Source of the DNA: a virus
IMG/VR virus record: IMGVR_UViG_3300022917_000005
DNA length: 45,207 nucleotides
Direction: 5' to 3' (one strand)
Below are positions 499 to 43,622 of this stretch, in pieces (positions within the stretch are counted from its first letter, which is position 1; each line of letters begins with the position of its first letter). The position numbers and the translations under genes are program-made. Under the pieces are notes generated by a model. It saw nothing but the letters and a program-made list of their open reading frames with translations. It did no database searches and had not been told where the DNA came from.

Positions 499-536
499 GC
501 CATCAGTCTAAGCGCCCTCAGTCGAGATGTCAACTG
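499..536 (-). promoter_or_regulatory. Leaderless promoter with palindromic motif copy
   Basis: Minus strand reads CAGTTGACATCTCGACTG: TTGACA (533-528), 17-nt spacer, TAGACT (510-505), 6 nt, ATG (498). Confidence 0.65.
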
Positions 537-861
537 ACATTCCCGAGCACCGCCTACCGTTTTGTACCGCTTTGCAGTCTGCCCCGTGGAGCTTGCACCA
601 GCGAGGCGGAGAAGGCTCCACCCCCACCGAGGTATGCCCCCGACCCATTTCGCGCTCCAGCGCCTCGCTGAGGCGGCCGGCGAGCGCTTCTGCATCGGCC
701 AGGAGAGCAACCTCCTCCGCACCCTCCCGTTCCCTCAGGAAGTTGATGCAGATACGCACCCGACCCAGCGCCTGCTGCAACCGTCCTACGCGTCCCAACC
801 GCCCCAGGAACTCCGCGGGCGTCTCGTGCTTCAACTTCACGTCTCCAGTCATGCCGTCCAT
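508..861 (-). CDS. Hypothetical protein (117 aa; alternative start at 852)
   Basis: ORF track. The 3' end of the ORF contains the promoter of the next gene. The second ATG (852) is better spaced from the GAGAGGA run and the motif copy. Confidence 0.55.
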   Translation of the reverse strand: MDGMTGDVKLKHETPAEFLGRLGRVGRLQQALGRVRICINFLREREGAEEVALLADAEALAGRLSEALEREMGRGHTSVGVEPSPPRWCKLHGADCKAVQNGRRCSGMSVDISTEGA

Positions 862-892
862 CCTCTCAACTACTCAGTTCATATGTCAACTG
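862..892 (-). promoter_or_regulatory. Palindromic motif copy with a weaker -10; possible promoter
   Basis: Minus strand reads CAGTTGACATATGAACTG (892-875). TTGACA is followed after 18 nt by GAGGAT, then 7 nt to the ATG at 852. Confidence 0.4.
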
Positions 893-899
893 CCGCTCT

Positions 900-1125
900 C
901 TCTGCAAGATGTTCGCACCCCCCCGACGTACGCCACGTACCCCCCTAAGAGGGGGGGGTACTGTACGTGGCCTAGTTACGTGACTAGATGTTCGCAGCGT
1001 ACGCACCCGTTCGCACCGCAGGTCAGAGCCACGTACACAAGCGTACGTAGCGTACGCAGGGGGGTGTACGCACCCCCGTACGCAGCATGATCAACAAAGG
1101 GGGGTGCGTACACCCCCTGCGTACA
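900..1125. repeat. Iteron- and hairpin-rich non-coding region (candidate origin or regulatory array)
   Basis: At least 8 copies of (G/T)GTACGCA or CGTACG in both orientations. AGATGTTCGCA occurs twice. GC hairpins: GTACCCCCC-TAAGA-GGGGGGGGTAC (937-961), GGGGGTG-TACG-CACCCCC and GGGGGTG-CGTA-CACCCCC. C7 and G8 homopolymer runs. No convincing ORF. Confidence 0.6.
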
Positions 1126-3285
1126 TTAACCTTCAACCTTTTTTTCTCTGGATCTTGCCGAATCTTCCGCCTGATTCAGCTCCCCGAAGGCGAGCAGATC
1201 GAGCCCCCACCTCTGGCCGCCCAACGACACCGCCACCGCGTCCCCACCCGGCGCCCGCTTCTCCAGCACCTTCGTCCACGCCGTACTCCACGTGCTGCGT
1301 GCCAGCGCCTTCGAGTCGCCCCGATAGAAGCGCTCTACGACGCTCGCTCGCGCCTCAGACTTCGTGAGCCCCACCGAGCCACCCTGATCCCTCAGCACCT
1401 TCAGAAGGTGAACCTGAGCAGCCCCGTGGTGCGCCTCCCACGGCTCCACCTCTTCTGGCCGCCCCTCACCGGCCGCGATCTCGAAGGCATCGGAGATCAC
1501 CGCGAGCGAGGTGATGGGATCTCCGTCTTCGTCCACGCCCGTCACCACGCTCTTGAAGCGCAACGGGATGGGCGCCGCCTGCGGTAGATCCTTCTGCTTC
1601 TCCGTGCTCAGCGTGCCGGCGAGCCCCTCGCTCACCACCTTCAGCTCTGTGCTCTGTGCGCCATCGATCGCACTGCTGCCGCGAGCATCGCCGCCTTTGC
1701 GCCCCGTGTGGTGGACAGTCAGCACGCACGCGCCAGTCGCCTCCCTGGCCGCCCGCACCGCCTCGATGTAGATCCCCAGCTCCGTGGCGCTGTTCTCCTC
1801 CAATCCCACCGTCACCCGGGCCTGCGTATCGATCACCACCAGCACGGGCGCGATGCGCCGGCACGCTTCCACCAGTACCGCCCACGCTCCAATGTTCTTG
1901 GCCTGAACGGGCCGCGGGAGGATGTGCACGTTTTCCGGCATCACGCCGTGAAGCGACTCATATGCGGTGATTCGGTCTCCGATTCCACCAGCGCCCTCCG
2001 CTACGATGATCACCACCGCACCACCGTTGACCTTGCGCCCCTGCCACATTTTGCCGGCGGCTACGTGCCCCAGCATGTCCAGCGCCACGAACGACTTCTT
2101 GCTACCGGGCTCACCGATGATCCAGCTTTCGCTGTCCATGTTGAGCAGCCCTTTGATCAGGTAGCGGGGGCGCTCGCGCACCTTGATCTGCCCTGGCGTG
2201 AGCATCTCCGCCAGGAGTGCCTCCACCGCGTCTCCGGTCACCGGAGCACTCTCCACGCTCTCCGCCACCTGTACGGCCCGCCACGGGTCCCGCGGGGGCC
2301 TGGTGCCGTTTAGTACCGGCTTGAACTTCTCGGCGCTCCATGAGGCGTACGGGCCGTTTTCGTCATAGGCGGTATGTCCCAGATTGTCCCGCAGGATGGC
2401 ATATGCCACCTCCGCGCTCCAGAAGGTAGGCACGAAGTGCGAGAGCGCTACCGCGGCACGGTTGGCCCGCTCCTCGATCTCCCCCACGGGCGCCTCCCGC
2501 AGGGCATCGAGCGCGGGACGGAGAAACTCCTTCGCCTCCTCCTCCGTGAAGCTGCGCTCCTCGCGCACCGTGGCTGGCCCCGGCCCGAACAGGCTGCTCC
2601 CTCCGTCTCCCTCGCCGCTCACCTCCGGAGCGACTGCAGTCGGCGCGGGGAGTGGCTTCTCTGCCCGGGGAGACTTCGCCAGGATGCGGGCGCGGAGCAT
2701 CTCCCCCGAATCGTCTCCGTCTTCGTACTCCGCCACCTCCTCGAAATCGATCTCCTCCGCCCACGTGTACGGCACCAGCTCGCCCAACCGCGCCGGATCC
2801 TTGCTCCGGCGCACGGTGGGTGGAATCCACGCGAAGGCGCGTCCCTCTCCGTCCGCATCTCCGCCCTGATAGTCCAGTCCGGGCATGAATTTGTTGCACT
2901 CCCGCTCACGCAGGGGGGTGATGTAGAAGTGCTGCCCCCCGCCCGAGGTGAGCACGCGACCAAACACACGCGGCATGTGGCCGGCGTCGCGAATCTCCGC
3001 CAGCGACTCGTCTCCTCCGGCCCGGGGATCGTGATCGAGCACATCGAGGCGCCATCCACCGATGGCCGCGAGTGCCCACCCGGGACGCCAGCGATCCAGC
3101 TGCCTCAGTGAGGGAGTGATCTTCTGCCATGCCCGCGGCAGATGCCAGTCATTCTTGGCGTGCCCGGGTGTCTTGCATCCGTCCGGGCACGGGGCAGCGG
3201 CGAACACGGGAATCCCCGCCTCCACGAGAGCCCGCGCAATATCCAGCGCCTTGCGCTGCTCCGGGGTAACCTCTTCGTCGCTCAT
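1126..3285 (-). CDS. Bifunctional primase-polymerase / RepA-DnaB-like helicase
   Basis: 719-aa ORF. The N-terminus looks prim-pol-like (ALVEAGIPVFAAAP...HLPRAWQ). It has a P-loop GEPGSKKS and a Walker-B-like VLVVIDTQ. An SD-like AGGAGATAGGGGAA precedes the ATG. Confidence 0.8.
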   Translation of the reverse strand: MSDEEVTPEQRKALDIARALVEAGIPVFAAAPCPDGCKTPGHAKNDWHLPRAWQKITPSLRQLDRWRPGWALAAIGGWRLDVLDHDPRAGGDESLAEIRDAGHMPRVFGRVLTSGGGQHFYITPLRERECNKFMPGLDYQGGDADGEGRAFAWIPPTVRRSKDPARLGELVPYTWAEEIDFEEVAEYEDGDDSGEMLRARILAKSPRAEKPLPAPTAVAPEVSGEGDGGSSLFGPGPATVREERSFTEEEAKEFLRPALDALREAPVGEIEERANRAAVALSHFVPTFWSAEVAYAILRDNLGHTAYDENGPYASWSAEKFKPVLNGTRPPRDPWRAVQVAESVESAPVTGDAVEALLAEMLTPGQIKVRERPRYLIKGLLNMDSESWIIGEPGSKKSFVALDMLGHVAAGKMWQGRKVNGGAVVIIVAEGAGGIGDRITAYESLHGVMPENVHILPRPVQAKNIGAWAVLVEACRRIAPVLVVIDTQARVTVGLEENSATELGIYIEAVRAAREATGACVLTVHHTGRKGGDARGSSAIDGAQSTELKVVSEGLAGTLSTEKQKDLPQAAPIPLRFKSVVTGVDEDGDPITSLAVISDAFEIAAGEGRPEEVEPWEAHHGAAQVHLLKVLRDQGGSVGLTKSEARASVVERFYRGDSKALARSTWSTAWTKVLEKRAPGGDAVAVSLGGQRWGLDLLAFGELNQAEDSARSREKKVEG

Positions 3286-3337
3286 GCTATGATTCCCCTA
3301 TCTCCTGCTTGTGGTGAGCAGAGCGCTGTGACAAACG

Positions 3338-3367
3338 ATGGCCACCCTTCCGCCAGGGGGTGGCCAT
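3338..3367 (-). terminator. Hairpin downstream of CDS 3371..3625
   Basis: ATGGCCACCC / GGGTGGCCAT 10-bp stem followed on the minus strand by CGTTTGT. Confidence 0.45.
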
Positions 3368-3370
3368 TCG

Positions 3371-3681: not shown

Positions 3682-4038
3682 CTACGCCTTGCCCGGCTTC
3701 GCATCCGCGTGCCACGGGAACGAAGCACGCCACTTGCCTTCCGCTGTCTTCAGGTCTGCGATGCGCATCGGCCGGCGCGTGGGCTGCCCTTCGAGGAAGG
3801 GCCGCGTGCGCACGGTAGTCATCTCCTGAAGCGCCTCGAGACGCCCGACCTTCATCGCGTCGAGCGCGCCCCACAACTCGTTCAGGATCCCCGCGTGCCC
3901 CGCGTTCATCGCCGGCAACTGCGCCTCGATGAGCTGCCGCGCCACCTCCGCCTGCGCTTCCTGCCGCACCACCGCGAGCGCCAGCACGCCCTCCTTGGTG
4001 TGCGGAGAGAGCAGGATTTGCTGTCCGACTTTTGCCAT
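3682..4038 (-). CDS. Hypothetical protein (118 aa), first gene of the minus arm
   Basis: ATG at 4038 (MAKVGQQILLSPHTKEG...) follows GGAAAGGAAG. The ORF-track start at 4122 is a TTG inside the operator region. Confidence 0.6.
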   Translation of the reverse strand: MAKVGQQILLSPHTKEGVLALAVVRQEAQAEVARQLIEAQLPAMNAGHAGILNELWGALDAMKVGRLEALQEMTTVRTRPFLEGQPTRRPMRIADLKTAEGKWRASFPWHADAKPGKA

Positions 4039-4108: not shown

Positions 4109-4162
4109 CAGTTGAGATACAACCTAGGTCGTGCTACCTTGACGTAGTCGAGATTTCAACTG
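4109..4162. promoter_or_regulatory. Divergent promoter/operator region with two motif copies
   Basis: Plus strand: TTGAGA (4112-4117), 17 nt, TACCTT (4135-4140). Minus strand: TTGAAA (4159-4154), 17 nt, TAGCAC (4136-4131). Motif copies at 4109-4126 and 4146-4162. Confidence 0.55.
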
Positions 4163-4176
4163 AAGGGAGCGCTCAG

Positions 4177-4601: not shown

Positions 4602-5272
4602 GCGAGCTTTCCGATTACCTCGCGGAGTACGCCGAAGGTGTGGTACAGGAGTGGATGCGCCTCATCGACATTCCTGATGACATTCAGGCGCGCGTGACGT
4701 GGCTTGGCGACGATGAGTTCCGGTTGGAGATGATGGATCGCGCGGAGATTGGGCACTTCCGCCTGAAGGTCACCGTGGAGCCCGTGGACGTTCCCCCGAT
4801 CGGCCCGGAGAATGATCCGGCGCAGATCGAGGAGATGAAGGATTCTTCCTGCTCGATCTGCGGGCGCATCCTCGCTCAGCCCGAAGATCCGCTTTCCGTG
4901 GACTGCGGCGGAGACTGTCTCGGTTGCATGATCGAAGCCGAGAAGCAGATGGACACCACCCCAGACGAGTGGGTGGCGAGCACGTGGGCCATGACGGCGC
5001 TGGGTGACCGGGTGCGCATCGGGGAGAGCGAAGCCGTCATCGAGGGTTTCTCGCGCCTCCCCTGGCACAGCATCATCGAGAAGTCTTTCCACAAGCCGGA
5101 TGGCAAGTGGTGGGACAGTGTGAAGCCGTTCGAGCACACTCAGATCCACGTGAAGCTCGCGCACCTTCCCGAGGTGCTCTCGCTGCCGGCGACCGGAGAG
5201 GTGGAGATTCTCTGTTCCGTGACGCGCAAGGCGATGCTCGCTTTGGGCGGCACGTTTCCTGCGTCAGAGTGA
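4598..5272 (+). CDS. Hypothetical protein with a Cys cluster
   Basis: GTGA overlap start (VSELSDYLAEYAEG...). Contains CSICG...CGGDCLGC. Confidence 0.6.
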   Translation: MSELSDYLAEYAEGVVQEWMRLIDIPDDIQARVTWLGDDEFRLEMMDRAEIGHFRLKVTVEPVDVPPIGPENDPAQIEEMKDSSCSICGRILAQPEDPLSVDCGGDCLGCMIEAEKQMDTTPDEWVASTWAMTALGDRVRIGESEAVIEGFSRLPWHSIIEKSFHKPDGKWWDSVKPFEHTQIHVKLAHLPEVLSLPATGEVEILCSVTRKAMLALGGTFPASE

Positions 5273-5902: not shown

Positions 5903-6474
5903 GCGATGACATGTGGGAGAGGATGACGCGCCTTCTGGCGCCCCAGGATCGAGACGCCCGTTTCCCCCAGAGGTGCCACATCGGCAGCGAAGCGTGGGAT
6001 GCACTGCGTGAACACGCGAAGGTACCGGCGCAGCCCTTCGGCTACGTTAATCAGTTCTACGGCGTGCCCATCGTGCTGGACGAGAGCTATCCGCCTGACA
6101 TCTGGCGCATCCTCGATCAGCACGGCGAGGAGATGGCTAGCGGCTCCTCACGCTTCCTCCTCTCGAAGGCGGATCTCGATGCTCGTCTTCAGGATGCCGA
6201 TGAGCACGGTGGTGGACCGGAATATGATTGCTGGGGCGTGGGTAGTCCCGATGGCCCATGCGGTGGATGCGGGCGCTGCTTTCGGATGATGGAAAGCCAC
6301 TACTTCGAAAAGTCGCGAGTGGAGGCGGCGCACTATCACGCCGCGGGCTTCGAATGGGCGCCCTACGCCATCGACCTCGGCCACTTTCCCGGCTTCGGTG
6401 GATATCACGAGAGCTACGGGTGCGCGATGGCCAAGGAGCGCCCCTTCGGCATGTTCCCGTGGGAGAAGCTGTGA
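5899..6474 (+). CDS. Hypothetical protein (191 aa)
   Basis: ATGA overlap start; ORF track. Confidence 0.65.
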   Translation: MSDDMWERMTRLLAPQDRDARFPQRCHIGSEAWDALREHAKVPAQPFGYVNQFYGVPIVLDESYPPDIWRILDQHGEEMASGSSRFLLSKADLDARLQDADEHGGGPEYDCWGVGSPDGPCGGCGRCFRMMESHYFEKSRVEAAHYHAAGFEWAPYAIDLGHFPGFGGYHESYGCAMAKERPFGMFPWEKL

Positions 6475-8270
6475 GTGCTCTGCTCAAACTCCGTGATTAT
6501 CAGACGGAGACGATTCGCGCTCTGCATCAGCGGTGGGACGCTGGTGCGGGGCGCGTTCCCAGCGTGCTCGCCACGGGGCTCGGCAAAACGGTGATCTTCG
6601 CGCATCTCATCGCGGAGCACCTCGATGCGCATCCGCTCGATCGCGCGCTGGTGCTGGTGCACACGGACGAGCTGGCGCTTCAGGCTGCCAAGAAGATGCG
6701 CGAGGTTGCTCCGCATCTCTCCGTGGGCATCGTGAAGGCGGAGCGCAACGAGGTGGCCGCCCGGGTGCTCATCGGCAGCGTGCAGACGCTCCGCAATCCG
6801 AAGCGCCTCGCGCAGGTACGCCGCGTCTCCCTGATCGTGGTAGACGAATGCCATCACGCGGTGGCCACCACCTATCAGACGATCCTCCGTGGGCTCGATG
6901 CTCCAGGGCAACGCGTGGCCGGCTTCACGGCAACGCTGGCCCGCGGAGACAAGCTGAAGCTCTCCGACATCTGGGAGGAGCCCGCCGTCACCTACGGCAT
7001 CTCCTTCGGTATCCGCCGCGGCTATCTCCTCGATGTCCGGGGCAAGCGGATCGTGATCCCCGATCTCAACCTCTCCAACGTGCGCAAGCAAGGAGGAGAC
7101 TTCGCAGACGGAGCACTGGCCACGGAGATGGATCGGGCGCTCGCTCCGGAGAAGATCGCGGAGGGGTGGCTGGAGCACGCCAGCGACCGCAAGGGCATCG
7201 CCTTCTGGCCCACGGTGGAGATGGCGGAGCACGGGGAGAAAGCCTTCCTCAACCTTGGGATTCCCAGCGAGACCATTCACGGCAAGCTGGGGCGCGAGGA
7301 GCGTCGGGCCATGCTCCGGCGCCTGCGCTCCGGCGAGACGCAGGTAATCCACGGCGTGGGGGTGCTCACGGAGGGATTCGATGATCCCACCATCTCCTGC
7401 GTGGGGATCTTCCGCCCTACGCGCAGCGCTCCGCTGTATCAGCAGATGGTGGGACGCGGGCTCCGTCCGGATCTGGAGCTGCCGGCCGCGGAGCGCGGGG
7501 ATTGCCTGGTGCTCGAAGCGGTGGGCGCCGGCGCGCAGCACGATCTCCGTACTCTCGTGGATCTCTCCGAGCACAAGCCGGATGACGCGGTGGAGATGGA
7601 TGAGGAGCTGACGCTCCTCGGCATGGAGGAGATGTGGGAGGAGGAGGAGAAGGAGAGCGCGAGTGCGGGTGGGTGGCCAGAGGAGGAGGCGTGGGACGGA
7701 GACACGGAAACCGTTGATTTCGATCCTCTGGGGAGAACTACTCCCGGAGCGTGGCTGCATACCTTCGAGGGGCACTACTTCCTCCCCATCGGCCGCCGCG
7801 CCTACGCGCTCATCGTGCCTTCGGAGGAGCCCGGACGCTGGGATGTGGCGTGGATCGTCAAGGAGCCCGGGCAATACGGCTACCTCTCCTGTCCCGCGGC
7901 CACCAGCTACCCGAAGCGCTTCGGGCGCTCGCGCTGGTGCGGATGCGGGGAGAAGCACGAGGGGAGCATCGGCGCGCTCACGGAGCACCGCGGGCTCTCC
8001 TTGGAGATGGCGTGCAGTTGGGCGGAGGAGGTGATGGAGGAGGTGGCCGGCAAGGCGCTCGCAGCCAGGGTAGGGCACGCTGCCGCGGAGTGGCGCGGGC
8101 AGCGCCCGAACATCACCCTCTTGCGCGAAGCGTGGGATCTCTCCATCCCAGTCTCCACCACACGCGGGATGACCAAAGGGGAGTTGACTGATACAGTTGA
8201 GATATTGACTGCCAGCAAGCGCATTGATCCGGTAGTCCAGTTCATGATGATGAGCAGGGATGGGGAATGA
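6471..8270 (+). CDS. SF2 DEAD/DEAH-box DNA helicase
   Basis: GTGA overlap start. Motifs ATGLGKT (I), DECHH (II) and QQMVGRGLR (VI). Confidence 0.85.
   Translation: MSALLKLRDYQTETIRALHQRWDAGAGRVPSVLATGLGKTVIFAHLIAEHLDAHPLDRALVLVHTDELALQAAKKMREVAPHLSVGIVKAERNEVAARVLIGSVQTLRNPKRLAQVRRVSLIVVDECHHAVATTYQTILRGLDAPGQRVAGFTATLARGDKLKLSDIWEEPAVTYGISFGIRRGYLLDVRGKRIVIPDLNLSNVRKQGGDFADGALATEMDRALAPEKIAEGWLEHASDRKGIAFWPTVEMAEHGEKAFLNLGIPSETIHGKLGREERRAMLRRLRSGETQVIHGVGVLTEGFDDPTISCVGIFRPTRSAPLYQQMVGRGLRPDLELPAAERGDCLVLEAVGAGAQHDLRTLVDLSEHKPDDAVEMDEELTLLGMEEMWEEEEKESASAGGWPEEEAWDGDTETVDFDPLGRTTPGAWLHTFEGHYFLPIGRRAYALIVPSEEPGRWDVAWIVKEPGQYGYLSCPAATSYPKRFGRSRWCGCGEKHEGSIGALTEHRGLSLEMACSWAEEVMEEVAGKALAARVGHAAAEWRGQRPNITLLREAWDLSIPVSTTRGMTKGELTDTVEILTASKRIDPVVQFMMMSRDGE
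8194..8211. repeat. Palindromic motif copy inside the helicase CDS
   Basis: CAGTTGAGATATTGACTG. Confidence 0.5.
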
Positions 8271-8853: not shown

Positions 8854-9131
8854 CTCCGGAGGAGCGCTCAGACGTGCTCCGCGCTGAGGCGAACAGCGCC
8901 CCCATGCTCGCCGGCCAGCGATTCACGCGCCGGCCAGGGGAGGACCGCCTCAACGCCATCGCTGGCGTGATCGAGAAGATCGTGCTCAATCGGCCAGTAA
9001 GCGTGAAGATCACAAAGGGGATGGTGGAGGCTGCTCGATACGAAATGGGTAACGCCTCCCCCGAGGAGGCATGGCGCACGCTGGCTTGCGCGCTTCGTGC
9101 TGGTGGATATGGAGTGATCGAGAGTGAGTAG
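8844..9131 (+). CDS. Hypothetical protein (95 aa)
   Basis: ATG at 8844 (MELTPEERSDVL...) after GGGGGCTGAAGGA; overlaps the previous stop. Confidence 0.55.
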   Translation: MELTPEERSDVLRAEANSAPMLAGQRFTRRPGEDRLNAIAGVIEKIVLNRPVSVKITKGMVEAARYEMGNASPEEAWRTLACALRAGGYGVIESE

Positions 9132-10104
9132 CTTATTCCCGGACGCGAAGAACTTCGGCACGGTGAGCCCGAAAACTGGGCGATACGACATGCCGTTGCT
9201 CCCTGGCGAGCAGGGGGTGAAGAGTGGCGGAGACTGGGTGCCGCGAGGGATGCGGCGCACCACCAACCTCATCGGGGCGATCAGCGAGAGCAAGGCGCTG
9301 GGGATCTGGTTGCTGGAGCAAGCCCTGATCGGGCTGGTGCGTCAGCCATCCCTCTACGAAGAGTTGACGATGCTCGTGCACAATGGCGACCGCGCGGAGG
9401 TGAATTGGCTCGCGCTGCGCGACCACCCGGAGGTGCGCAAGGAGCTGAGCGGCACGTGGAAGAACGAGGATGACTGCATAGCGGGGCGCGCGCGCCACGC
9501 TGCCGGCGCGAATGAGGCTCGCCAGGCCGGCACCAACCGGCACAGCGCGTGGGAGGTGCGCGGGAAGACCGGGGAGCTGATCGGCACCCCGGAGATGAAG
9601 GAGCAGGTGCTCAGGCTGGAGGCTCTCCTGGCCGATGCAGGGCTTATGCGCGTGCCGGGCCTGAGCGAGCGTGTTATCCGCAACACCACCCTCAACTGCG
9701 CCGGCAAGTTCGATGACATCCTGATGGAGCTGGCAACCGGCAAACTTCTCATGGCAGACCTGAAGACGAAGCGTCGCCCGTTCTTCTCGTGGCTGGAGGT
9801 GGATGCGCAGCTCGCCACGTACGCCAGGGCAGAATGGATGCTGAGCGAGGATTGCCAGGGATATGAGCCTGGCCCGCTGCATCACGTGGATCTCACGCGC
9901 GGCGTAGTGCTGCACGTTCCCAGCGACGGCACGCCGGCCTTCCTGCGTCGCGCTCACCTTGACCGCGGATGGGAGATCGCACAGCTCTGCGCTCGAGTAC
10001 TCGATGAGCGTGCGTACGGCAAAGGGGCGGAGCGTCAGGCGCTCAGCGCGTGGCCGGGGGAAATCCTCCCGGAAGCAGTTGACATCTCGACTGACACCCA
10101 GTAA
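9124..10104 (+). CDS. PD-(D/E)XK RecB/Cas4-like exonuclease
   Basis: Has DDILMEL...ADLKTK (D...D/E-x-K) and the QLATY (QxxxY) motif. Confidence 0.65.
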   Translation: MSSLFPDAKNFGTVSPKTGRYDMPLLPGEQGVKSGGDWVPRGMRRTTNLIGAISESKALGIWLLEQALIGLVRQPSLYEELTMLVHNGDRAEVNWLALRDHPEVRKELSGTWKNEDDCIAGRARHAAGANEARQAGTNRHSAWEVRGKTGELIGTPEMKEQVLRLEALLADAGLMRVPGLSERVIRNTTLNCAGKFDDILMELATGKLLMADLKTKRRPFFSWLEVDAQLATYARAEWMLSEDCQGYEPGPLHHVDLTRGVVLHVPSDGTPAFLRRAHLDRGWEIAQLCARVLDERAYGKGAERQALSAWPGEILPEAVDISTDTQ

Positions 10105-10107
10105 TGT
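10076..10107 (+). promoter_or_regulatory. Near-consensus promoter with motif copy at the 3' end of the exonuclease gene
   Basis: CAGTTGACATCTCGACTG: TTGACA (10079-84), 17 nt, TAATGT (10102-07). Confidence 0.6.
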
Positions 10108-10358
10108 TCTTCTTGTCAGCGGGAAACAGCCACTGACTCCCCCGGAAGGCAGTTCTTAGAACACCCGGGGTACAGCACGGAGGCACGACGGAAGCCAGGC
10201 ACTACGGGAACGGCATTCGCAAGACTGGTGGAAAGCGTGAGTGGTCGAGAAGTGACAGGTTGCAGGAAGTCAGCACGCAGTGCTCTATTCCTGGGTATCG
10301 GCTTCTCGGCCACGCCCTAGCACTACTCACCATATTCACTGGCGGAAGGAGCCCCGGG

Positions 10359-10917: not shown

Positions 10918-10990
10918 GTTCCTCGTAGCTTAAGTTGGCAGAGCACCGGTATCCATCCCGGGGATGTGAGTTCGAGTCTCACGGAGGACA
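10918..10990 (+). tRNA. tRNA, Trp(CCA)-like, with non-canonical anticodon arm and acceptor stem
   Basis: D arm GCTT-AAGTTGGCA-GAGC. T arm GTGAG-TTCGAGT-CTCAC. GAGCACCGGT is identical to the bacterial tRNA-Trp D/anticodon junction. The anticodon arm CCGG-TATCCATC-CCGG is 16 nt, not 17. No encoded CCA. Confidence 0.7.
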
Positions 10991-11091
10991 CTAGCCACCA
11001 ACCGTGGCCGCGAGAATGACCCTCTGGGCACTCGCACACAACTTCATACGCAGTGCACACAGTTTTTCAACGTTGATCAAAGGGGAACGCA

Positions 11092-12372: not shown

Positions 12373-12743
12373 ATATCGAGCAGATGTTGGCGGCGCTCGA
12401 AGAGGACGAGAAGCACCCGGAGATGTACGGCAGCGTCACTCGCTCGGAAGTGACTGCCACCGTGGCGAAGCATCTCGAAGCGCTGCACGAGCTTCGGGCG
12501 GAGCTGGCGCAGTACGGCGCCGGCTTCTCGCGCAAGGTGGATGAAGTGCTCGCGGTGGACACGGACGGCGCCGCTCCGAAGCACGTGGCCGTGAGCAGCG
12601 AGCGTGTGCGCATCACCCTGCGGGACGTGGAGGGATTCGAGGCGGGGCGCCCCAACGTCGTGATCATGAGCGATGGGGACGTTGGGCACGAATACCTCGA
12701 TCAGTTCCGCAACATCATGGTGCGAGCGGAGATCCTCCGGTGA
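12369..12743 (+). CDS. Hypothetical protein (124 aa)
   Basis: GTGA overlap start; ORF track. Confidence 0.6.
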   Translation: MNIEQMLAALEEDEKHPEMYGSVTRSEVTATVAKHLEALHELRAELAQYGAGFSRKVDEVLAVDTDGAAPKHVAVSSERVRITLRDVEGFEAGRPNVVIMSDGDVGHEYLDQFRNIMVRAEILR

Positions 12744-13321
12744 CGCAGCTGCGCGAGGGTGACATCATGTTCACCACGATCAGCGGGGGCGCCGGCCTGG
12801 TGGTGGCGGGGGGGCAGCTCCTCCTGGCCGCTGGCGAGCGTGGCCCCGTTTGGCGCGCTGGCGTGCGGAAGTGGTGGCGGCGCCGGCACACAGGCGTTGT
12901 GGTGCGCAAGCGCGAGGGGCTGGAGCTGTGCGTGGTGCAGGCGATGCCGGGTGGTGCGGAGATCGCGCCCCTGCGCTTCGACTCCGATACCGTCTACCTC
13001 CGCCCTCCGTATGACAACCTCACCGGTTTCGATCAGCTTCCGCAGAACATGAAGGTAGCGGAGGCGGCGAAGCGCTACGTGGGCACGCCGTATGACTTCG
13101 CTACGTACGGCGCTATCCCGCTGTGGCGCCGCGGGATTCGCACGGAGGGGCTGGAGCACATCATCAGTGACACGGACACCATGATGTGTTCGCGGCTGGT
13201 GGATGCGTCGCTTCAGGACGCACACTTCCATCTCTTCGATGACGGGCGCATCCCGGGGGATGTCACCCCCAGCGAGGCATACCGCAGACTTGTTCAGTTG
13301 GGATCTCAACTGATAGAGTGA
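12740..13321 (+). CDS. Permuted papain-fold (YiiX/NlpC-P60 superfamily-like) cysteine peptidase-like protein
   Basis: Order GDIMF ... RHTGVVV ... MMCSRLVDASL fits a His-then-Cys permuted NlpC/P60 arrangement. Judged by eye only. Confidence 0.45.
   Translation: MTQLREGDIMFTTISGGAGLVVAGGQLLLAAGERGPVWRAGVRKWWRRRHTGVVVRKREGLELCVVQAMPGGAEIAPLRFDSDTVYLRPPYDNLTGFDQLPQNMKVAEAAKRYVGTPYDFATYGAIPLWRRGIRTEGLEHIISDTDTMMCSRLVDASLQDAHFHLFDDGRIPGDVTPSEAYRRLVQLGSQLIE
13295..13312. repeat. Palindromic motif copy at a gene junction
   Basis: CAGTTGGGATCTCAACTG, perfect 6-bp arms, 14 nt before the ATG at 13326. Confidence 0.5.
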
Positions 13322-13597: not shown

Positions 13598-13617
13598 CCA
13601 GTTCAGATGTAAACTGG
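13598..13617. repeat. Palindromic motif copy (intergenic)
   Basis: CCAGTTCAGATGTAAACTGG. Confidence 0.55.
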
Positions 13618-14941: not shown

Positions 14942-15066
14942 GCTGGGTTTGGGTGATCGGCATCGGGGGTTACGGGGCGCTGGCGCTGGTGCTCGCAATG
15001 TGGAGCGCCACGGAGTTCGTGTGGAAGATCAGGGATAGGCGAGCACGAGGGAGACATCGGAGATGA
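14938..15066 (+). CDS. Possible 42-aa membrane peptide
   Basis: ATGA overlaps at both ends; encodes MSWVWVIGIGGYGALALVLAMW... Confidence 0.45.
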   Translation: MSWVWVIGIGGYGALALVLAMWSATEFVWKIRDRRARGRHRR

Positions 15067-19816: not shown

Positions 19817-19855
19817 CAGTTGACTTCTCGACTGAGGTACCGGTAAGCTCTGTGC
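19817..19855 (+). promoter_or_regulatory. Leaderless promoter with motif copy
   Basis: CAGTTGACTTCTCGACTG: TTGACT (19820-25), 18 nt, TAAGCT (19844-49), 6 nt, ATG (19856). Confidence 0.55.
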
Positions 19856-38662: not shown

Positions 38663-38838
38663 CGCCTTGCCCCTCCTGGCCGATCCGGGCCTGTCAACGC
38701 TTCGAGCAGCAGCAGCAGCACGCCGAGCACCGCGAAGCCTGCCACCGTGTGCACCAGGAAGGCGGCCAGGGAGAGGCAGGCAAAGCCGGCGAGCGTGAGA
38801 ACGAGGGTACGCACCGCTGCCAACCGCTCCCACCGCAT
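38659..38838 (-). CDS. Membrane protein (59 aa), possibly leaderless
   Basis: Two hydrophobic helices. TGCTACCAT (extended -10) lies 7 nt upstream of the ATG. Confidence 0.5.
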   Translation of the reverse strand: MRWERLAAVRTLVLTLAGFACLSLAAFLVHTVAGFAVLGVLLLLLEALTGPDRPGGARR

Positions 38839-39349: not shown

Positions 39350-39432
39350 GATCGCTTCCTTCCCTTGCGTTCGGGTGGATCTTCGGGTGGTGTTTCGGGG
39401 GGCGGGGGGTAATCCTCGCCTTCCTTCGCCAT
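39346..39432 (-). CDS. Possible 28-aa Pro/Glu-rich peptide
   Basis: Coupled at both ends but low complexity. Confidence 0.25.
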   Translation of the reverse strand: MAKEGEDYPPPPETPPEDPPERKGRKRS

Positions 39433-39587
39433 CAGTCGTTGTCGGCGCTGTCTGCCTGACCCCACGTCCCGCACGTCCCGCAGCGCTTGTCCGCGGGAGC
39501 GGGGACGTGCCTGCCTGCGCACGACGTGTCGACGTCCGCAGGGTTGGTCGGGGGAACCGGCTGGATGGGGCGTGGCGTCTTCTTCAT
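39432..39587 (-). CDS. Leaderless 51-aa protein with CxxC
   Basis: The ATG at 39587 is 6 nt after the TAGTCT -10 box; encodes MKKTPRPIQ...CGTCGTWGQ. Confidence 0.5.
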   Translation of the reverse strand: MKKTPRPIQPVPPTNPADVDTSCAGRHVPAPADKRCGTCGTWGQADSADND

Positions 39588-39626
39588 ACCACCAGACTAG
39601 CCATGATCAGTCGAGATGTCAACTGG
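39588..39626 (-). promoter_or_regulatory. Leaderless promoter with motif copy
   Basis: TTGACA (39622-17), 17 nt, TAGTCT (39599-94), 6 nt, ATG. Confidence 0.65.
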
Positions 39627-39645
39627 TCTGTGGTAGGCTGTAGGC
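39611..39645 (+). promoter_or_regulatory. Divergent plus-strand leaderless promoter sharing the same palindrome
   Basis: TCGAGA (39611-16), 17 nt, TAGGCT (39634-39), 6 nt, ATG (39646). Confidence 0.45.
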
Positions 39646-39816
39646 ATGACAGAGACCTGCGCAGTAAAGATCCAGAACGAGGGCAACCGCCCGTGCGGCA
39701 AGGCGGTGGTCTACTGCACGGCGAACAGCGAGCGCGGCGAGTATTCCGGGTGGCGCCACGCCGATCCGGCACACGACGTGCCTCACAGTGCCGTACCGAA
39801 ATCCTGGGTGCGCTGA
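39646..39816 (+). CDS. Possible leaderless 56-aa Cys/His protein, antisense to the late operon
   Basis: Encodes MTETCAVKIQNEGNRPCGKAVVYCTANSERGEYSGWRHADPAHDVPH...; converges on the terL stop. Confidence 0.4.
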   Translation: MTETCAVKIQNEGNRPCGKAVVYCTANSERGEYSGWRHADPAHDVPHSAVPKSWVR

Positions 39817-39817
39817 G

Positions 39818-41203
39818 CTACATACGGCGCGCGCGTGGGGCTTGGCGAAGATCGAGGTAGCCGCCCACGTAGCGCGCCGTATCCATGCTGTGATCGTTCA
39901 GCTTCAGGGGCTCATCCGGCGCCGGCTTGTCCTGTGTCGTGCCAGAGCTGTTCGGCTTAGCTTTCCACACATAGCCCGTCACCTCGCCCGCGAAGCCGAT
40001 CGGCAGCGATGCGTCAGTGAGGCGCGGGTCACGCTCCACCAGTGAATCGCGACACACGAAGAGGCGATTCTCCGCCATCCGCTTCTGCATCGCCTGAATG
40101 CCCGGGCTCACGTCTTTAATGGCCGGCACGGTGCGCAGCCCGCTGTGCTTCTCGAAGGTGGCGCGGTCCTCTGCGTCGTGATCCGTGATGATCCAGTCGG
40201 GCTTTGGATACTTCCACGTCTCGCCATCCTGCTTCGTGATGCAGGGCTTGATCTTCTGCTTCCATATGTCCTCCACGAGCATCTGTGTCTGGTAGATCTC
40301 CTTCTCCAGCCACATACGCCCATCCGGATCGATCGCCCACATCTGCCACACGAACGGGTTGACGTACCCGAAGTCAATGCCCCAGATGCGTTGCCAGTCC
40401 TTCGGCAGCACCTTGCGATCCACGAGATGTACGGCGGGATTCCACCGTTCGTAGATGACACCCTCCGCGGCAGCCCATATCCCACCTTGAAGGCGCAACT
40501 TGCGAACGCCCGTCAAATTGTTAAGTTTCTTCAGATATGACTCGCCGCGCTCGGTTGCTTGGCCGGCTGCATCGAACAGGATCGGATTGTCCTGATGCAG
40601 CGAATACAGCATGACTGTCTTACCTTCGTCACATCTGAGCTTGAGCCAGTGATCCGGACCTTCTGGGTTGCAGTCTGCGAGGATCTGCTGAAATGAGATG
40701 CGCCCGTTACGCAGGCGCGAAGTGAGCTTTTCCCAGTCAGTGATGCTCAACTCTGTAGCTTCCTGCACAAAGATCACATCGTACTCAGATGACATGATCT
40801 TCGTGGCGTTGTCCATCCCGCCCACGATGATCTGTGATCCGTTACCGTAGATAAACTGCGCCGGATCCGCGCCCGATCCCCCGTACCACTTCAGCAAGCC
40901 CATTGAGAGCGCTTCTACCGCTACGTGCTGCTTGAACGTCACCAAACCCGTGGATGTGAGGGAGTTGTGAGTCTTGCGCACGATGAGAGCGCGCATCCCG
41001 CGATCGTGGTGCTCGTGCTCGATCTTGCATCCACGCACACACGCGCCGTTCTTCAGGCACATCATGTGGATCTTCCACAGCGCGCCGAAGCTCTTGCCCG
41101 TGCCCGCGGCGCCACAGATCAGCACCTCATCCTCGCGCCGGCTGAACAGCTCACGCGATGCCCCGCGCAGCTCCAGCCGCTTCGTCAGTACGTCGGTAGA
41201 CAT
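39818..41203 (-). CDS. terL: Terminase large subunit
   Basis: 461 aa; Walker A GAAGTGKS; Walker-B-like VIFVQEATE; C-terminal nuclease-size domain. Confidence 0.85.
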   Translation of the reverse strand: MSTDVLTKRLELRGASRELFSRREDEVLICGAAGTGKSFGALWKIHMMCLKNGACVRGCKIEHEHHDRGMRALIVRKTHNSLTSTGLVTFKQHVAVEALSMGLLKWYGGSGADPAQFIYGNGSQIIVGGMDNATKIMSSEYDVIFVQEATELSITDWEKLTSRLRNGRISFQQILADCNPEGPDHWLKLRCDEGKTVMLYSLHQDNPILFDAAGQATERGESYLKKLNNLTGVRKLRLQGGIWAAAEGVIYERWNPAVHLVDRKVLPKDWQRIWGIDFGYVNPFVWQMWAIDPDGRMWLEKEIYQTQMLVEDIWKQKIKPCITKQDGETWKYPKPDWIITDHDAEDRATFEKHSGLRTVPAIKDVSPGIQAMQKRMAENRLFVCRDSLVERDPRLTDASLPIGFAGEVTGYVWKAKPNSSGTTQDKPAPDEPLKLNDHSMDTARYVGGYLDLRQAPRARRM

Positions 41204-41209
41204 GGATCA

Positions 41210-41237: not shown

Positions 41238-41246
41238 TCGGGTTGA

Positions 41247-41486
41247 TCAGGCGATGCGGTAACCGCCGAGTGAGCGCCGGTTGATGATCAGATCCTGGTC
41301 ACGGGCGCCGTCGCCAACCTCGCGCACCGTGATGGACTTCGGGGAGCCACTCTTGCCCACCAGCGAAATGACCTTCGAGGCACCCATGTGCGGGTACTTG
41401 ACGTCCATCAGGATCGTCCCGATCTCAAGCTGAGCGTCGATGGCGGCAGCGGCGGGGCTGAGTTTCGGAGCTTCGTTCTTCGTCAT
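41247..41486 (-). CDS. Leaderless hypothetical protein (79 aa)
   Basis: ORF track; ATG 6 nt after the TACACT -10 box. Confidence 0.6.
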   Translation of the reverse strand: MTKNEAPKLSPAAAAIDAQLEIGTILMDVKYPHMGASKVISLVGKSGSPKSITVREVGDGARDQDLIINRRSLGGYRIA

Positions 41487-41534
41487 ACCAGAAGTGTAGC
41501 CCCACCCAGTTCAGATGTCAACTGGGTGGGGCTA
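41487..41534 (-). promoter_or_regulatory. Leaderless promoter cassette inside a 38-bp perfect-arm palindrome
   Basis: TTGACA, 17 nt, TACACT, 6 nt, ATG. Arms TAGCCCCACCCAGTT / AACTGGGTGGGGCTA span 41497-41534. Confidence 0.7.
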
Positions 41535-41540
41535 GGTGGA

Positions 41541-41768
41541 TCAGGCCACCCGGTAGAAGCGCCCCGGCATGATCTCCGGGCCGGAGAAAAACAGCTCGTT
41601 CAGGAAGTCGCGCGTCTCGCCGATGATCAGGCCCTTGCGCTCCAGCGAGTCAATCGCGTTACCGTTCGCGCCCGCGAGCTGAAATGCGGTGCGCTCCAGC
41701 TCGCCGGCCGCGGTGAGGATCTCCAGCGCCTTCGCCTGCGTCTTCGGGAGGTTCTGCGTCATCGTCAT
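41541..41768 (-). CDS. Leaderless 75-aa protein, possibly winged-helix-like
   Basis: ORF track. The first 5 codons (MTMTQ) are identical at nucleotide level to those of 43308..43583. Confidence 0.6.
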   Translation of the reverse strand: MTMTQNLPKTQAKALEILTAAGELERTAFQLAGANGNAIDSLERKGLIIGETRDFLNELFFSGPEIMPGRFYRVA

Positions 41769-41807
41769 ACCAGAAGTGTAGCCCCACTCAGTTCAGATGT
41801 CAACTGG
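41769..41807 (-). promoter_or_regulatory. Leaderless promoter cassette
   Basis: The 46 nt upstream of the ATG differ at 1 position from cassette 41487-41525. Confidence 0.7.
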
Positions 41808-41957
41808 CTACCAGCGAGGCAGGCGAGAGATCAAATACAGCAGTGCGCCGGCCAGGGGAGCAACCCCCTGAGACAAGCCCGCATCCCGAATCTTCTCGAT
41901 GAGGCGGGCTGCCTCGCGCTCAGCCCCGGTCGTTGAACGTGCCCGCCTGCTTGTCAC
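41808..41957 (-). CDS. Possible 49-aa tail-anchored peptide (paralog of the post-terS extension)
   Basis: GTG start; ends ...GLSQGVAPLAGALLYLISRLPRW*. Differs from 42193..42261 mainly at synonymous positions. Confidence 0.35.
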   Translation of the reverse strand: MTSRRARSTTGAEREAARLIEKIRDAGLSQGVAPLAGALLYLISRLPRW

Positions 41958-42153
41958 TGGCTTTCCGCCAGCCGTTTCCACGGCGGTTGTTTATGTTACC
42001 GAAAAGCCGAAACTCGATGCGGGTCTCGGTAACCTCGCGCATCGATGCGCCACCGTCTACCTGGACCATGTGACGATACGTATTCCGGTACGCTTCACGG
42101 CTGGTTCCGTCCGCCATCTCGACCGTGCCCTTGATGCTCTCCATCAGCTTCAT
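41920..42153 (-). CDS. Leaderless hypothetical protein (77 aa)
   Basis: ORF track; ATG 6 nt after the TACGCT -10 box. Confidence 0.6.
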   Translation of the reverse strand: MKLMESIKGTVEMADGTSREAYRNTYRHMVQVDGGASMREVTETRIEFRLFGNINNRRGNGWRKASDKQAGTFNDRG

Positions 42154-42192
42154 ACCAACAGCGTAGTCTTACCCAGTTCAGATGTCAACTGG
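42154..42192 (-). promoter_or_regulatory. Leaderless promoter cassette
   Basis: TTGACA, 17 nt, TACGCT, 6 nt, ATG. Confidence 0.65.
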
Positions 42193-42252
42193 TTACCAGC
42201 GAGGAAGCCGAGAAATCAAGTACAGCAGTGCGCCGGCCAGGAGAGCAATCCC

Positions 42253-42759
42253 CTACGACAGGTCCTCAGGGTCGATGCCTACCAGCTCGTAGCGCACGCT
42301 GCCCTGAATCTCCAGCTTGCCGGCAGCGTCGAGCCCCATGAGCTTCCTGGTCTCCGCGTCCATCTTCGCCGCCGTCTCGATCGCGCGCAGCTTGCCGGTG
42401 TAGTCGCGCACCACCTCGCCGTTCTCGTCATAGAAGATCGAGCCATCCTTGCCCACCGCCACGGGGGCAGCCGCGAGATCTGCGATCTCGAGCGCGCGCT
42501 CAGTCAGCTCCGCGTACAGCCCCAGACTCTGCTGCCGCATCTCATCGAGGTCCGGCGCGGGGATGTTGGCACGAACTTCGCGGATAATCTCAGAAACGCG
42601 CTGCTGCGAAATTCCGAGATCATCCGCGATCTGCTCTTGATTCTGGCGATAGACCGTGTACAGGCGCCAAACCTGGCCGTTGCGCCCTTCGTAGCGAGCT
42701 GCGCCCCGTTGTCCACGGCGCTCCCTCATGGCACGGGCAAGCTCATCGCCGGCACTCAT
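42253..42759 (-). CDS. terS: Terminase small subunit (sigma-70 region-4-like HTH)
   Basis: QEQIADDLGISQQRVSEIIREV HTH. ATG at 42759 after GGGAG; alternative start at 42828. Ends in TAG at 42255-42253. Confidence 0.65.
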   Translation of the reverse strand: MSAGDELARAMRERRGQRGAARYEGRNGQVWRLYTVYRQNQEQIADDLGISQQRVSEIIREVRANIPAPDLDEMRQQSLGLYAELTERALEIADLAAAPVAVGKDGSIFYDENGEVVRDYTGKLRAIETAAKMDAETRKLMGLDAAGKLEIQGSVRYELVGIDPEDLS

Positions 42760-42957
42760 GATGATCAACTCCCACGGGGGCTCACTAGACAGGTCTGTCT
42801 GCCAGGGTAGCTTATGGAGGGGCGCCATCGCTTCCGGTACGCCCTGTCAGCCGATCATAGATCGCGCGCCCCAGCACAGCCATCTGACGTACTCGCGTGT
42901 TCAGCGCAGCTACTCGATGCAAACGCTGAACGCCTTCTGTTAAGAAGGTTTACAACT

Positions 42958-43215
42958 CTACGCCCCGCGCCCCGCCACCTTGCCAGCCTTGTGCGTCGCG
43001 CGCCGGATCTGCGCGGGGGTGAGCTTCACGCTGCCGTTCTGCGCCCGGTACGCAGCCTCACGCTTGCCGTTGCCCATCGGCGTGGGCGCGCTCTGTGTGG
43101 CCTTGCGCACAGCCTCGCTCAGCTCCTTGACGCTCATCTTCGAGCGGCCGGCGATGGAGCGCTCCGCGGCCACCTTGCCGAGTTGGGTCTTGTTCATGCC
43201 CTTGTAGTTCGCCAT
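42958..43215 (-). CDS. Basic protein with a Rho_N/HeH (SAP-like) motif
   Basis: MNKTQLGKVAAERSIAGRSKMSVKELSEAV resembles the HeH/Rho-N fold motif. SD GGGGAAAAG. Confidence 0.5.
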   Translation of the reverse strand: MANYKGMNKTQLGKVAAERSIAGRSKMSVKELSEAVRKATQSAPTPMGNGKREAAYRAQNGSVKLTPAQIRRATHKAGKVAGRGA

Positions 43216-43260
43216 GATCTTTTCCCCTATCCCTGATCTGATAACCCGATTGAAACGTGT

Positions 43261-43277
43261 CAGTTGATATCTGAACT
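43261..43277. repeat. Palindromic motif copy
   Basis: CAGTTGATATCTGAACT. Confidence 0.45.
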
Positions 43278-43309
43278 AAAGAGGGGCGCCCCCGCGCCCC
43301 CGCCCCCTC
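43274..43309 (-). terminator. Terminator after CDS 43308..43583
   Basis: Minus strand reads GAGGGGGCG...CGCCCCTC followed by TTTAGTT. Confidence 0.5.
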
Positions 43310-43583
43310 ACTCCTCGAAAGCGGCAACCTCCGCTGCGATCATCTCCGCGGTCCACACGATCTGGCACTCGCACTTGCGGGTGCCCTCCGCCAGCTCGCG
43401 GAACATCTGCACCTCCATCGCCACACCCGAGGTGGTGATCTCCCCCAGCTCGCCATCCTCGATCAAGCCCTGCTCGATCATCACCTCCGCGTTCGCCTCG
43501 AAGCACCCCAGGTCGTGACCTGCCTCGGCAGCGATCATGCGCTCGATCTCGGCCCGCTCTGTGTGCTCCTGCGTCATCGTCAT
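43308..43583 (-). CDS. Leaderless acidic hypothetical protein (91 aa)
   Basis: ORF track; ATG 6 nt after the TAGACT -10 box. Confidence 0.6.
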   Translation of the reverse strand: MTMTQEHTERAEIERMIAAEAGHDLGCFEANAEVMIEQGLIEDGELGEITTSGVAMEVQMFRELAEGTRKCECQIVWTAEMIAAEVAAFEE

Positions 43584-43622
43584 ACCAGTAGTCTAGCCAC
43601 ACCCAGTTCAGATGTCAACTGG
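43584..43622 (-). promoter_or_regulatory. Leaderless promoter cassette
   Basis: TTGACA, 17 nt, TAGACT, 6 nt, ATG. Confidence 0.65.

Follow-up and report, generated by a model that had tools for sequence, protein, structure and literature searches.

A repeated 18-bp palindrome merged with predicted leaderless promoters in a metagenomic phage genome, and a candidate ribbon-helix-helix regulator

Introduction

The virus record IMGVR_UViG_3300022917_000005 of the IMG/VR database, a 45,207-nucleotide stretch of DNA hereafter called the window, contains a multi-copy 18-bp palindrome that, in most of its copies, coincides with the -35 region of a predicted promoter. Several well-studied phages and plasmids employ comparable repeated or symmetric operators. 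In the Streptomyces phage phiC31, a conserved inverted repeat (CIR) of ~17 bp is found in many intergenic places and is the target of the multi-site c repressor, a helix-turn-helix protein of a temperate phage, and the early promoters do not fit the sigma-70 consensus and are separate from the CIRs. Arc and Mnt of phage P22 and CopG of pMV158 bind, as paired ribbon-helix-helix dimers, to symmetric operators of ~13-21 bp that lie over the -35 box or the spacer, and regulate their own expression. The L5 site contains a TTGACA-like sequence that overlaps the -35 box of the Pleft promoter. In the Cluster A mycobacteriophages (L5, Bxb1, TipsytheTRex), more than 20 copies of one short site, the stoperator, are located at promoters and in short intergenic gaps, in an orientation that tracks transcription, and all are controlled by one phage protein; these sites are asymmetric, ~13-14 bp long and bound by a monomer (PMC9283540). 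The Cluster O mycobacteriophages (Corndog) carry more than 30 copies of a 17-bp dyad-symmetric repeat, TGTTCGGNNNCCGAACA, the binder of which is unknown, along with 8-9 predicted SigA-like promoters giving leaderless mRNAs (PMC4351075). In D29, a phage without lysogeny, the repressor Gp36, a MerR-type protein that binds GC-rich direct repeats, tunes early and late expression (PMC12266134).

Like the Cluster A stoperators, the 16 sites in the window lie at gene boundaries, and at 13 of them the TTGACA arm is oriented along the local transcription. Unlike the stoperators, which are asymmetric 13-mers bound by a monomer with two helix-turn-helix-type domains and belong to temperate, integrase-encoding phages, the window element is an 18-bp palindrome, most of its copies are full predicted promoters and the proposed binder has a predicted ribbon-helix-helix fold, with Pfam and PHROGs scans of ~70 open reading frames (ORFs) revealing no lysogeny genes. 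Because the site is symmetric and lysogeny genes were not found in these scans, the system works like the stoperators but falls outside the stoperator family. As in phiC31, an inverted repeat occupies multiple intergenic sites of an actinophage genome, but here a predicted sigma-70-type promoter is merged with it. In Cluster O, repeats and promoters are separate and many of the repeats are intragenic, whereas here the palindrome and the -35 box form one element located at gene boundaries. Arc, Mnt and CopG act at one or two operators, compared with 14-16 sites genome-wide in the window, where, furthermore, the 118-aa candidate regulator has an extra C-terminal domain of ~70 residues and fails sequence-family thresholds. 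Gp36 of D29 differs in not acting on a palindrome that is present in many copies and merged with promoters. When the literature was searched for the motif sequence, the only matches were primers without any relation to it. On balance, it appears somewhat probable that the 18-bp element is a dyad-symmetric operator in the -35 region and that the likeliest factor, the 118-aa ribbon-helix-helix protein, represses all of these promoters.

Results

An 18-bp element repeated at gene boundaries

The conserved core of the element is 18 bp long, CAGTTGAcATCTsrACTG, with 7 of the 9 base pairs symmetric in the consensus. A weight-matrix scan of the genome identified 14 strong copies (26-33 bits) and two weak ones (4109-4126 and 16909-16926). 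All 15 sites listed in an earlier, sequence-only reading of this DNA were recovered to within 1 nt; the claim that its sequence occurs in at least 15 copies holds for the 18-bp core, whereas the exact 20-mer CCAGTTGACATCTGAACTGG is found only three times (41506, 42173 and 43603). The enrichment over shuffled controls is substantial by every count: CAGT-N10-ACTG has 12 matches compared with 0.48 expected and with no more than 2 in any shuffle, the degenerate 18-mer with at most one mismatch is found at 14 loci compared with 0.00 expected, and the 20-mer with up to three mismatches is found in 7 places compared with 0 in the shuffles.

The location of the copies is far from random. Each is intergenic or lies no more than ~60 nt from a gene end, which extends to all copies the placement previously noted for most of them. 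The copies were also thought to be concentrated in the packaging/late region, but the segment 19,835-39,607 (19.8 kb), which encompasses the entire structural/lysis module, contains none, and the sites are found instead where the replication genes and the small genes lie and at the start of the packaging operon. A promoter scan of the structural module detected no sigma-70-like promoter compared with 3.8 expected. The 16 sites are as follows.

519-536, minus strand: operator/promoter copy; -35 TTGACA 533-528, -10 TAGACT 510-505, leaderless ATG 498; predicted to drive the 69-aa gene 289-498
875-892, minus strand: motif copy; TTGACA with no TAnnnT at 17 nt, then Shine-Dalgarno-like GAGAGGA and ATG 861
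4109-4126, plus strand: weak site with one good arm, in the divergent control region
4145-4162, minus strand: second operator of the divergent region; TTGAAA 4159-4154
8194-8211, plus strand: motif copy in the last 60 nt of the helicase gene, before gene 8267; no recognizable -10
10076-10093, plus strand: motif copy at the end of gene 9124-10104; TTGACA-17-TAATGT (-10 10102-10107), leadered transcript predicted
13295-13312, minus strand: nearly symmetric copy at the end of gene 12740-13321; on the plus strand it lies between TTGTTC and TAGAGT-6-ATG 13326
13599-13616, minus strand: non-promoter copy against local transcription, directly after a terminator-like hairpin
16909-16926, plus strand: weak copy, absent from the sequence-only reading, near the end of gene 15063-16967
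19817-19834, plus strand: promoter copy at the end of the rightward gene block; TTGACT-18-TAAGCT-6-ATG 19856
39608-39625, minus strand: single operator with two divergent predicted leaderless promoters; heads the portal and structural operon
41507-41524, minus strand: promoter/operator, ATG 41486, upstream of the terminase gene; 10-bp GC-rich flanks extend it to a hairpin with a 15-bp stem
41789-41806, minus strand: promoter/operator, leaderless ATG 41768
42174-42191, minus strand: promoter/operator, leaderless ATG 42153
43261-43278, plus strand: non-promoter copy against local transcription, between the terminator hairpin 43282-43301 and a conserved ACACGTTTCAAT box
43604-43621, minus strand: promoter/operator, leaderless ATG 43583

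Merger with predicted leaderless promoters

The arrangement TTGACA-17-TAnnnT-6-ATG, previously described for six minus-strand copies, is exact at 519, 39608, 41507, 41789, 42174 and 43604, with the six -10 boxes fitting TA(G/C)(A/G/T)CT, and the plus-strand version with an 18-nt spacer is likewise present at 19817 (TTGACT-18-TAAGCT-6-ATG). A layout typical of housekeeping sigma factors (TTGACA-like -35, spacer of 16-18 nt, TAnnnT) is found at these six sites and at 19817 and 10076, and is lacking at 875, 8194, 13599 and 43261. The four top matches of the genome-wide promoter scan (10 of 12 positions) are all motif copies, and nearly every strong predicted promoter carries the element, including those heading the terminase gene and the structural operon. 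The ATG is positioned exactly 6 nt past the -10 box, at the predicted +1, at 7 window sites and at most of the orthologous sites in relatives, and the downstream ORFs have a G+C content at third codon positions (GC3) of 0.76-0.92. Taken together, this geometry suggests that the motif promoters give leaderless mRNAs starting with the ATG.

The same layouts recur at individual sites in related genomes, which are designated by L numbers. The 519 arrangement is also found ahead of the orthologue of the 69-aa gene in at least 8 relatives, and the counterpart of 19817 in the syntenic position of L006 is predicted to drive a 134-aa leaderless ORF. Where relatives have a copy syntenic with 875, the -10 position is occupied by GAGACT, AAGACT or GGAGGA. 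At 39608, the minus-strand promoter reads TTGACA-17-TAGTCT-6-ATG 39587, and the opposite-strand -35 box noted in the sequence-only reading at 39611-39645 is indeed part of a predicted plus-strand promoter, TCGAGA-17-TAGGCT-6-ATG 39646; this divergent layout is conserved in L016. The two genes that diverge from the 39608 operator, 39646-39816 (plus strand, 56 aa) and 39432-39587 (minus strand, 51 aa), encode small Cys/His-rich proteins; both sit between the terminase and portal genes and are conserved in L016.

Dyad symmetry and promoter geometry in diverged relatives

Relatives of the phage were gathered by scanning IMG/VR for the exact pattern, by a scan based on the terminase and by single-protein look-ups; gene order is common to the window and these genomes (tblastx, tblastn), with 35-90% protein identity. 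The motif is present in multiple copies in at least 11 distinct metagenomic relatives, nearly all with the same leaderless geometry (L009 with L005 and L015, L019, L014, L017, L024, L025, L028, L067, L080, L083, L086 and L088), and such conservation in diverged genomes backs the proposal, already made in the sequence-only reading, of a multi-copy dyad-symmetric operator apparently fused to a host-type leaderless promoter. Both the motif and the -35/17/-10/6/ATG layout persist at 35-60% protein identity, where the flanking sequences are unrelated, with consensus variants such as ...CTGCACTG, ...CCGAACTG and CAGTTGACTTC-N3-ACTG. Both the palindrome and leaderless promoters of the TTGACA type are lacking in the more distant relatives L020-23, L026 and L029-34. 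One of the motif-bearing relatives, L067 (JGI 3300072492), shows the same gene order near one end of a 124,888-bp contig, compared with 40-46 kb for the other genomes; this long contig could be an integrated copy or a mis-assembly.

Several observations bear on whether the symmetry of the element is a feature in its own right. Both arms are kept at the non-promoter copies 875, 8194, 13599 and 43261. The three copies in reverse orientation (13295, 13599 and 43261) are non-promoters, and two of these adjoin terminator-like hairpins. The three sites of L028 all have the outer bases changed as a pair, to TAGT...ACTA, with the symmetry preserved, and the divergent-region sites of the relatives can be good or perfect palindromes without TTGACA, e.g. 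CAGTTGCGATCGCAACTG in L080. In the pooled matrix, where positions 2-4 and 15-17 are fixed by construction, so that including them would be circular and only the remaining positions were used, conservation is symmetric at positions 7/12 and 9/10. Because the geometry and the symmetry are conserved in diverged relatives, the arms are kept in the absence of a promoter and the outer bases change as a pair in L028, it can be argued that promoter geometry and dyad symmetry are both under selection. The retention of the arms at copies without a -10 box or without TTGACA, together with the paired change in L028, likewise points to a protein-binding operator rather than a mere promoter.

The competing view is that the repeats represent a promoter module only, a ~60-bp cassette spread by duplication and recombination, in which the symmetry would be fortuitous or due to two -35 boxes placed back to back for use in both directions. 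This possibility is not without merit, given that copies 41507, 41789 and 43604 are alike through the -10 box and the first 5 codons (MTKNE, MTMTQ), even before unrelated genes, that site 39608 serves two divergent promoters, and that the TTGACA arm follows local transcription at all but three sites. Because the identity runs through the -10 box and the first codons, part of the likeness among the copies at 41.5-43.6 kb is due to recent duplication, and, with MTKNE or MTMTQ starts also found on unrelated genes in relatives, the promoter unit behaves like a portable cassette ahead of variable small genes. Nevertheless, a promoter-only origin is improbable considering that the arms are kept at copies without -10/ATG as well as at copies without TTGACA, that the outer bases in L028 change together, that the arms persist across 35-60% protein identity amid unrelated flanks, and that both directions are used in two places only.

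The small genes between consecutive copies (41247-42153) have no homologues in the relatives, where the corresponding slots behind this promoter unit are filled by other genes. Accordingly, the repeats might be recombination linkers, shared boundary sequences that aid the exchange of small gene cassettes between related phages, but exchange would be a side effect of any repeated sequence, and this explanation, which we regard as very improbable, leaves the dyad symmetry, the fixed -35/-10/ATG geometry and the paired sites in the control region unaccounted for.

Hairpins at a subset of the sites

Among the 76 pooled sites of the window and its relatives, 7 have 7-11 additional complementary bases on each side of the core; these extensions are unrelated in sequence, far exceed the chance expectation and represent true covariation. 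One of the seven is the window copy 41507, which folds at -38.3 kcal/mol (z = -5.9), and copies 13599 and 43261 adjoin terminator-like hairpins. Thus, the element could function as a nucleic-acid structure, an RNA hairpin or a DNA cruciform serving as a terminator, RNA-processing site or insulator. As the primary role, however, this seems decidedly improbable: in ~90% of the copies, the core alone forms a weak stem of 5-7 bp with internal mismatches, folding at 41789, 42174 and 519 is no better than that of shuffled sequences, the core sequence is conserved rather than covarying, and no U-tract follows the extended hairpins at 41507 and at the 6 sites in relatives. The extension looks like an added, terminator-like function at a subset of the operator sites, and the extended copy 41507 is possibly a terminator-plus-promoter module.

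Two further structures adjoin motif copies. Copy 10076 is followed by a hairpin (10088-10118), the loop of which, GTAATGTTCTTCTT, is identical in the diverged L015 (~4860-4895); the stem differs but pairs in both (CTGACA/TGTCAG in the window, CTCCCG/CGGGAG in L015), and ~150 nt of non-coding sequence lie 3' of this hairpin. In five genomes, the conserved box ATTGAAACGTRT (window 43246-43260) adjoins the reversed copy after a terminator hairpin (L019 8047, L009 12100, L017 8587 and L014 9329 in the relatives).

Paired sites and a candidate regulator in the divergent control region

Sites 4109-4126 and 4145-4162 are 36 bp apart and are located between the two gene blocks of the genome. From 4122, the leftward block passes through the primase/polymerase gene 1126-3285, the assembly junction and the small genes 45160-41247 to the terminase (39818-41203), portal, protease, major capsid, tail and lysin genes, and stops near 20340; the rightward block extends from 4177 to ~19800 and includes the helicase gene 6258-8270. 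In the rightward direction, TTGAGA 4112-4117 within site 4109 is followed after 17 nt by the -10 box TACCTT 4135-4140, the Shine-Dalgarno sequence GGGAG and GTG 4177. In the leftward direction, TTGAAA 4159-4154 within site 4145 is followed after 17 nt by the -10 box TAGCAC 4136-4131, a poor match, towards the putative ribbon-helix-helix gene. Each of the two operators thereby appears to overlap both the -35 box of one predicted promoter and the predicted start point of the other. All relatives with coverage of this region have the pair, 36-43 bp apart.

Directly beside the paired sites is the first gene of the leftward primase operon, the strongest candidate for encoding the binder.

3682-4038, minus strand: candidate regulator, 118 aa, with a predicted N-terminal ribbon-helix-helix; Shine-Dalgarno AAAGGAAG, then ATG 4038

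A terminator-like hairpin lies 3' of this gene. The sequence-only reading recognized no regulator gene; the candidate emerges here from structure prediction and from its position beside the paired operators. Homologues are encoded in the same position in the window, L009, L019, L024, L025, L067, L080, L083, L086, L087 and L088, and none is present in the motif-less L020 and L030, both of which cover the region. The gene accompanies the motif in each of the 11 relatives examined for it. The family has more than 120 members that are unannotated save for a few automatic labels, which are uninformative or evidently spurious. In the AlphaFold2 model, built with 112 homologues (predicted local distance difference test, pLDDT, 86.8), extended residues 1-11 are followed by helices 12-25 and 29-47 and by the additional C-terminal domain. 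The best Foldseek matches in PDB are all ribbon-helix-helix proteins, namely CdbA (probability 0.98, template modeling (TM) score 0.83, root-mean-square deviation (rmsd) 1.0 A), PutA, MatP, CopG on DNA, Arc and SvtR, and the named viral matches have this fold as well, with target-normalized TM scores of 0.74-0.83 and rmsd of 1.0-1.9 A for the top PDB and viral matches; because the domain is short (45 residues), the E-values are non-significant, all being 0.2 or above. The top three matches in a PDB profile search are CopG-family proteins, again at a non-significant E = 0.25. Sub-threshold Pfam matches were detected among the 112 homologues, to RHH_1 in 2 and to the Rv0623-like family in 4. These models and matches predict that the product of 3682-4038 is a ribbon-helix-helix protein.

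Across the 112 homologues, there is hardly any variation in the putative DNA-contacting strand, K-V-G/S-T-Q-L-L-V. An altered strand, KVSSHLQVS, is found in two members only, L084 and L085; these genomes have no CAGT-N10-ACTG motif and carry ACTGGTTGACTTGTCCACCAGT in the divergent region along with repeated CACGAATACGTG at promoters.

Other candidate binders

The element may be an operator-plus-promoter as described above but bound by a different protein, either the conserved 69-aa protein, a 191-aa protein encoded at 42253-42828 or a host regulator, an alternative that we consider unlikely overall.

289-498, minus strand: conserved 69-aa gene, always with its own motif promoter; second, weaker candidate binder

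The 69-aa family (at least 224 members) co-occurs with the motif and with the ribbon-helix-helix family, and the structural model is confident (pLDDT 89.8). Nevertheless, a Foldseek search with this model produced no significant structural match, only weak, scattered winged-helix matches with E >5, and the PDB profile search yielded one chance-level match. An impression by eye of a winged helix was accordingly abandoned, the model being confident yet without a significant Foldseek match. Hence, of the earlier suggestion that 289-498 encodes a DNA-binding protein, the conservation of the gene stands, whereas the confident model matches no DNA-binding fold significantly. The other small protein suggested at the same time, 41541-41768, was discarded as a conserved binder given that no relative in the set encodes a homologue.

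The 191-aa protein shows a weak Pfam match to Sigma70_r4/HTH_3, and a Sigma70_r4 match is recorded for its homologue in L067; a helix-turn-helix resembling sigma-70 region 4, the domain that reads TTGACA, would be a plausible reader of the element. The PHROGs label of the family is 'Rnase E'. However, this protein is also conserved in the motif-less relatives L020-23, L030 and L034 and occupies the position expected of the small terminase subunit, so that it was rejected as the operator binder; it is probably the small terminase subunit or another DNA-binding protein. As for a host regulator, we know of no actinobacterial regulator box that matches the motif. In isolated phages, tblastn found no match to the 118-aa protein or to the 191-aa protein.

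Genome context and additional features

The phage genome was assembled as a circle of 45,080 bp; this length, previously given for it, is borne out by the terminal 127 bp of the window, a direct repeat of the first 127. The G+C content of the window is ~63%, and the same contig is present in an ENA metagenome assembly. The gene map (~70 ORFs) was constructed by GC3-guided ORF calling and PHROGs and Pfam scans. Megablast of 7 kb against isolated phages gave no match, and the best isolate match of the large terminase has 48% identity (range 40-48%; Thermobifida phage P1312 and several Streptomyces phages). A search of GTDB genomes with the terminase returned only unrelated matches in Clostridia and no prophage relative.

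Apart from the candidates discussed above, a WhiB-like domain was identified at 19166-19360 (Pfam E = 4e-9), within ORF 18467-19561 (plus strand). Its product is a possible second transcription factor, of the type that contacts the housekeeping sigma, and has a homologue in one relative only (29% identity). The 634-aa protein encoded in the rightward block at 15063-16967 (plus strand) shows weak matches to HerA, AAA_10 and type IV secretion system (T4SS) DNA-transfer ATPases and may be an FtsK- or TraB-like DNA translocase. A tRNA-like gene with an abnormal anticodon loop was predicted by ARAGORN at 10918-10991 (plus strand); Rfam has no match there, and the Rfam scan of the window detected no RNA family.

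Iteron-like direct repeats are present at 900-1125 (GTWCGCASC and CGTACGCA, 4-5 copies each), beside motif copy 875 in the gap that follows the primase gene. Tighter iteron arrays occupy the same position in relatives (L080 5256-5443, L086 10906-11017, L087 5962-6135 and L088 10769-10833), and the region 900-1125 is a probable replication origin.

Besides the palindrome, and unrelated to it, the exact 10-mer CTCCTGGCCG is over-represented, with 17 copies compared with 0.29 expected. The flanks of these copies are unrelated, and most are intragenic, including those in the structural module (for example, 9625-9634, 12821-12830, 23989-23998 and 38673-38682 on the plus strand, and 696-705, 42234-42243 and 44487-44496 on the minus strand). 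Between 9.6 and 38.7 kb, 11 of 14 copies are on the plus strand, whereas all three copies outside that range are on the minus strand. Relatives also have CTCCTGGCCG or its variant CTCCCTGGCC. This word may be a polar sequence of the Chi or FtsK-orienting polar sequence (KOPS) type or a modification target.

Discussion

In the mechanism that appears most plausible, the left arm of the element would supply TTGACA in most copies, with TAnnnT 17 nt further on and the ATG at the predicted start, such that the promoters would be of the host housekeeping-sigma type. With the right arm located in the spacer, simultaneous binding of a protein to the two arms would exclude RNA polymerase from the promoter. 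The 118-aa protein, transcribed from the divergent region, would probably bind as two dimers, one per arm (the centers of the arms are 11 bp apart), and would repress its own promoter and all the others. Because nearly all strong predicted promoters carry the element and a few non-promoter copies lie beside terminators, a single factor could govern the whole transcription program. Promoter activity, protein binding and repression by binding are what we infer from this arrangement.

Several points weigh against this scenario. A simple early repressor does not explain late expression of the structural operon because the only predicted promoters of this operon carry the operator; operators of graded affinity, read-through or involvement in a carrier state might account for it. 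The ribbon-helix-helix assignment rests on predicted structure, the Foldseek and profile matches fall short of significance as given above, no family member reaches the Pfam RHH_1 threshold and the window protein has no Pfam match at all. Co-occurrence with the motif cannot choose between the 118-aa and 69-aa proteins because both show the same pattern. The covariation between the strand and the motif amounts to one lineage event, L084 and L085 being close relatives. The extended identity of copies 41507, 41789 and 43604 also has to be reckoned with. Finally, the phage is known only from metagenomes, and the Pfam and PHROGs scans detected no integrase, no partition gene and no known or Cluster A-type repressor family.

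The system is a fresh example of classical multi-site operator control in phages and involves no new principle, so that the general principles of phage regulation are unchanged by it. What it provides is a concrete circuit for a metagenome-only phage group, with an 18-bp site, a named candidate regulator and ~10 predicted promoters with exact starts. Compact parts for repressible expression in high-GC Gram-positive bacteria might be made from the promoter-operator unit and the regulator. If the operator reading is correct, global multi-site repression in the style of L5 and phiC31 would have arisen also on the basis of another fold, with operator and consensus leaderless promoter combined in one element.

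A broader and more doubtful, although conceivable, extension is that the whole clade, in which more than 100 contigs encode the family, has its transcription program wired via one ribbon-helix-helix operator merged with every -35 box, usable in either direction, supplemented with a terminator hairpin at some sites and organized in swappable units of promoter-operator, leaderless ORF and terminator. Should this be the case, such modular units would represent a ready set of parts for actinobacterial synthetic biology, and the wiring would be a minimal modular regulatory design, with none like it described for the studied phages.

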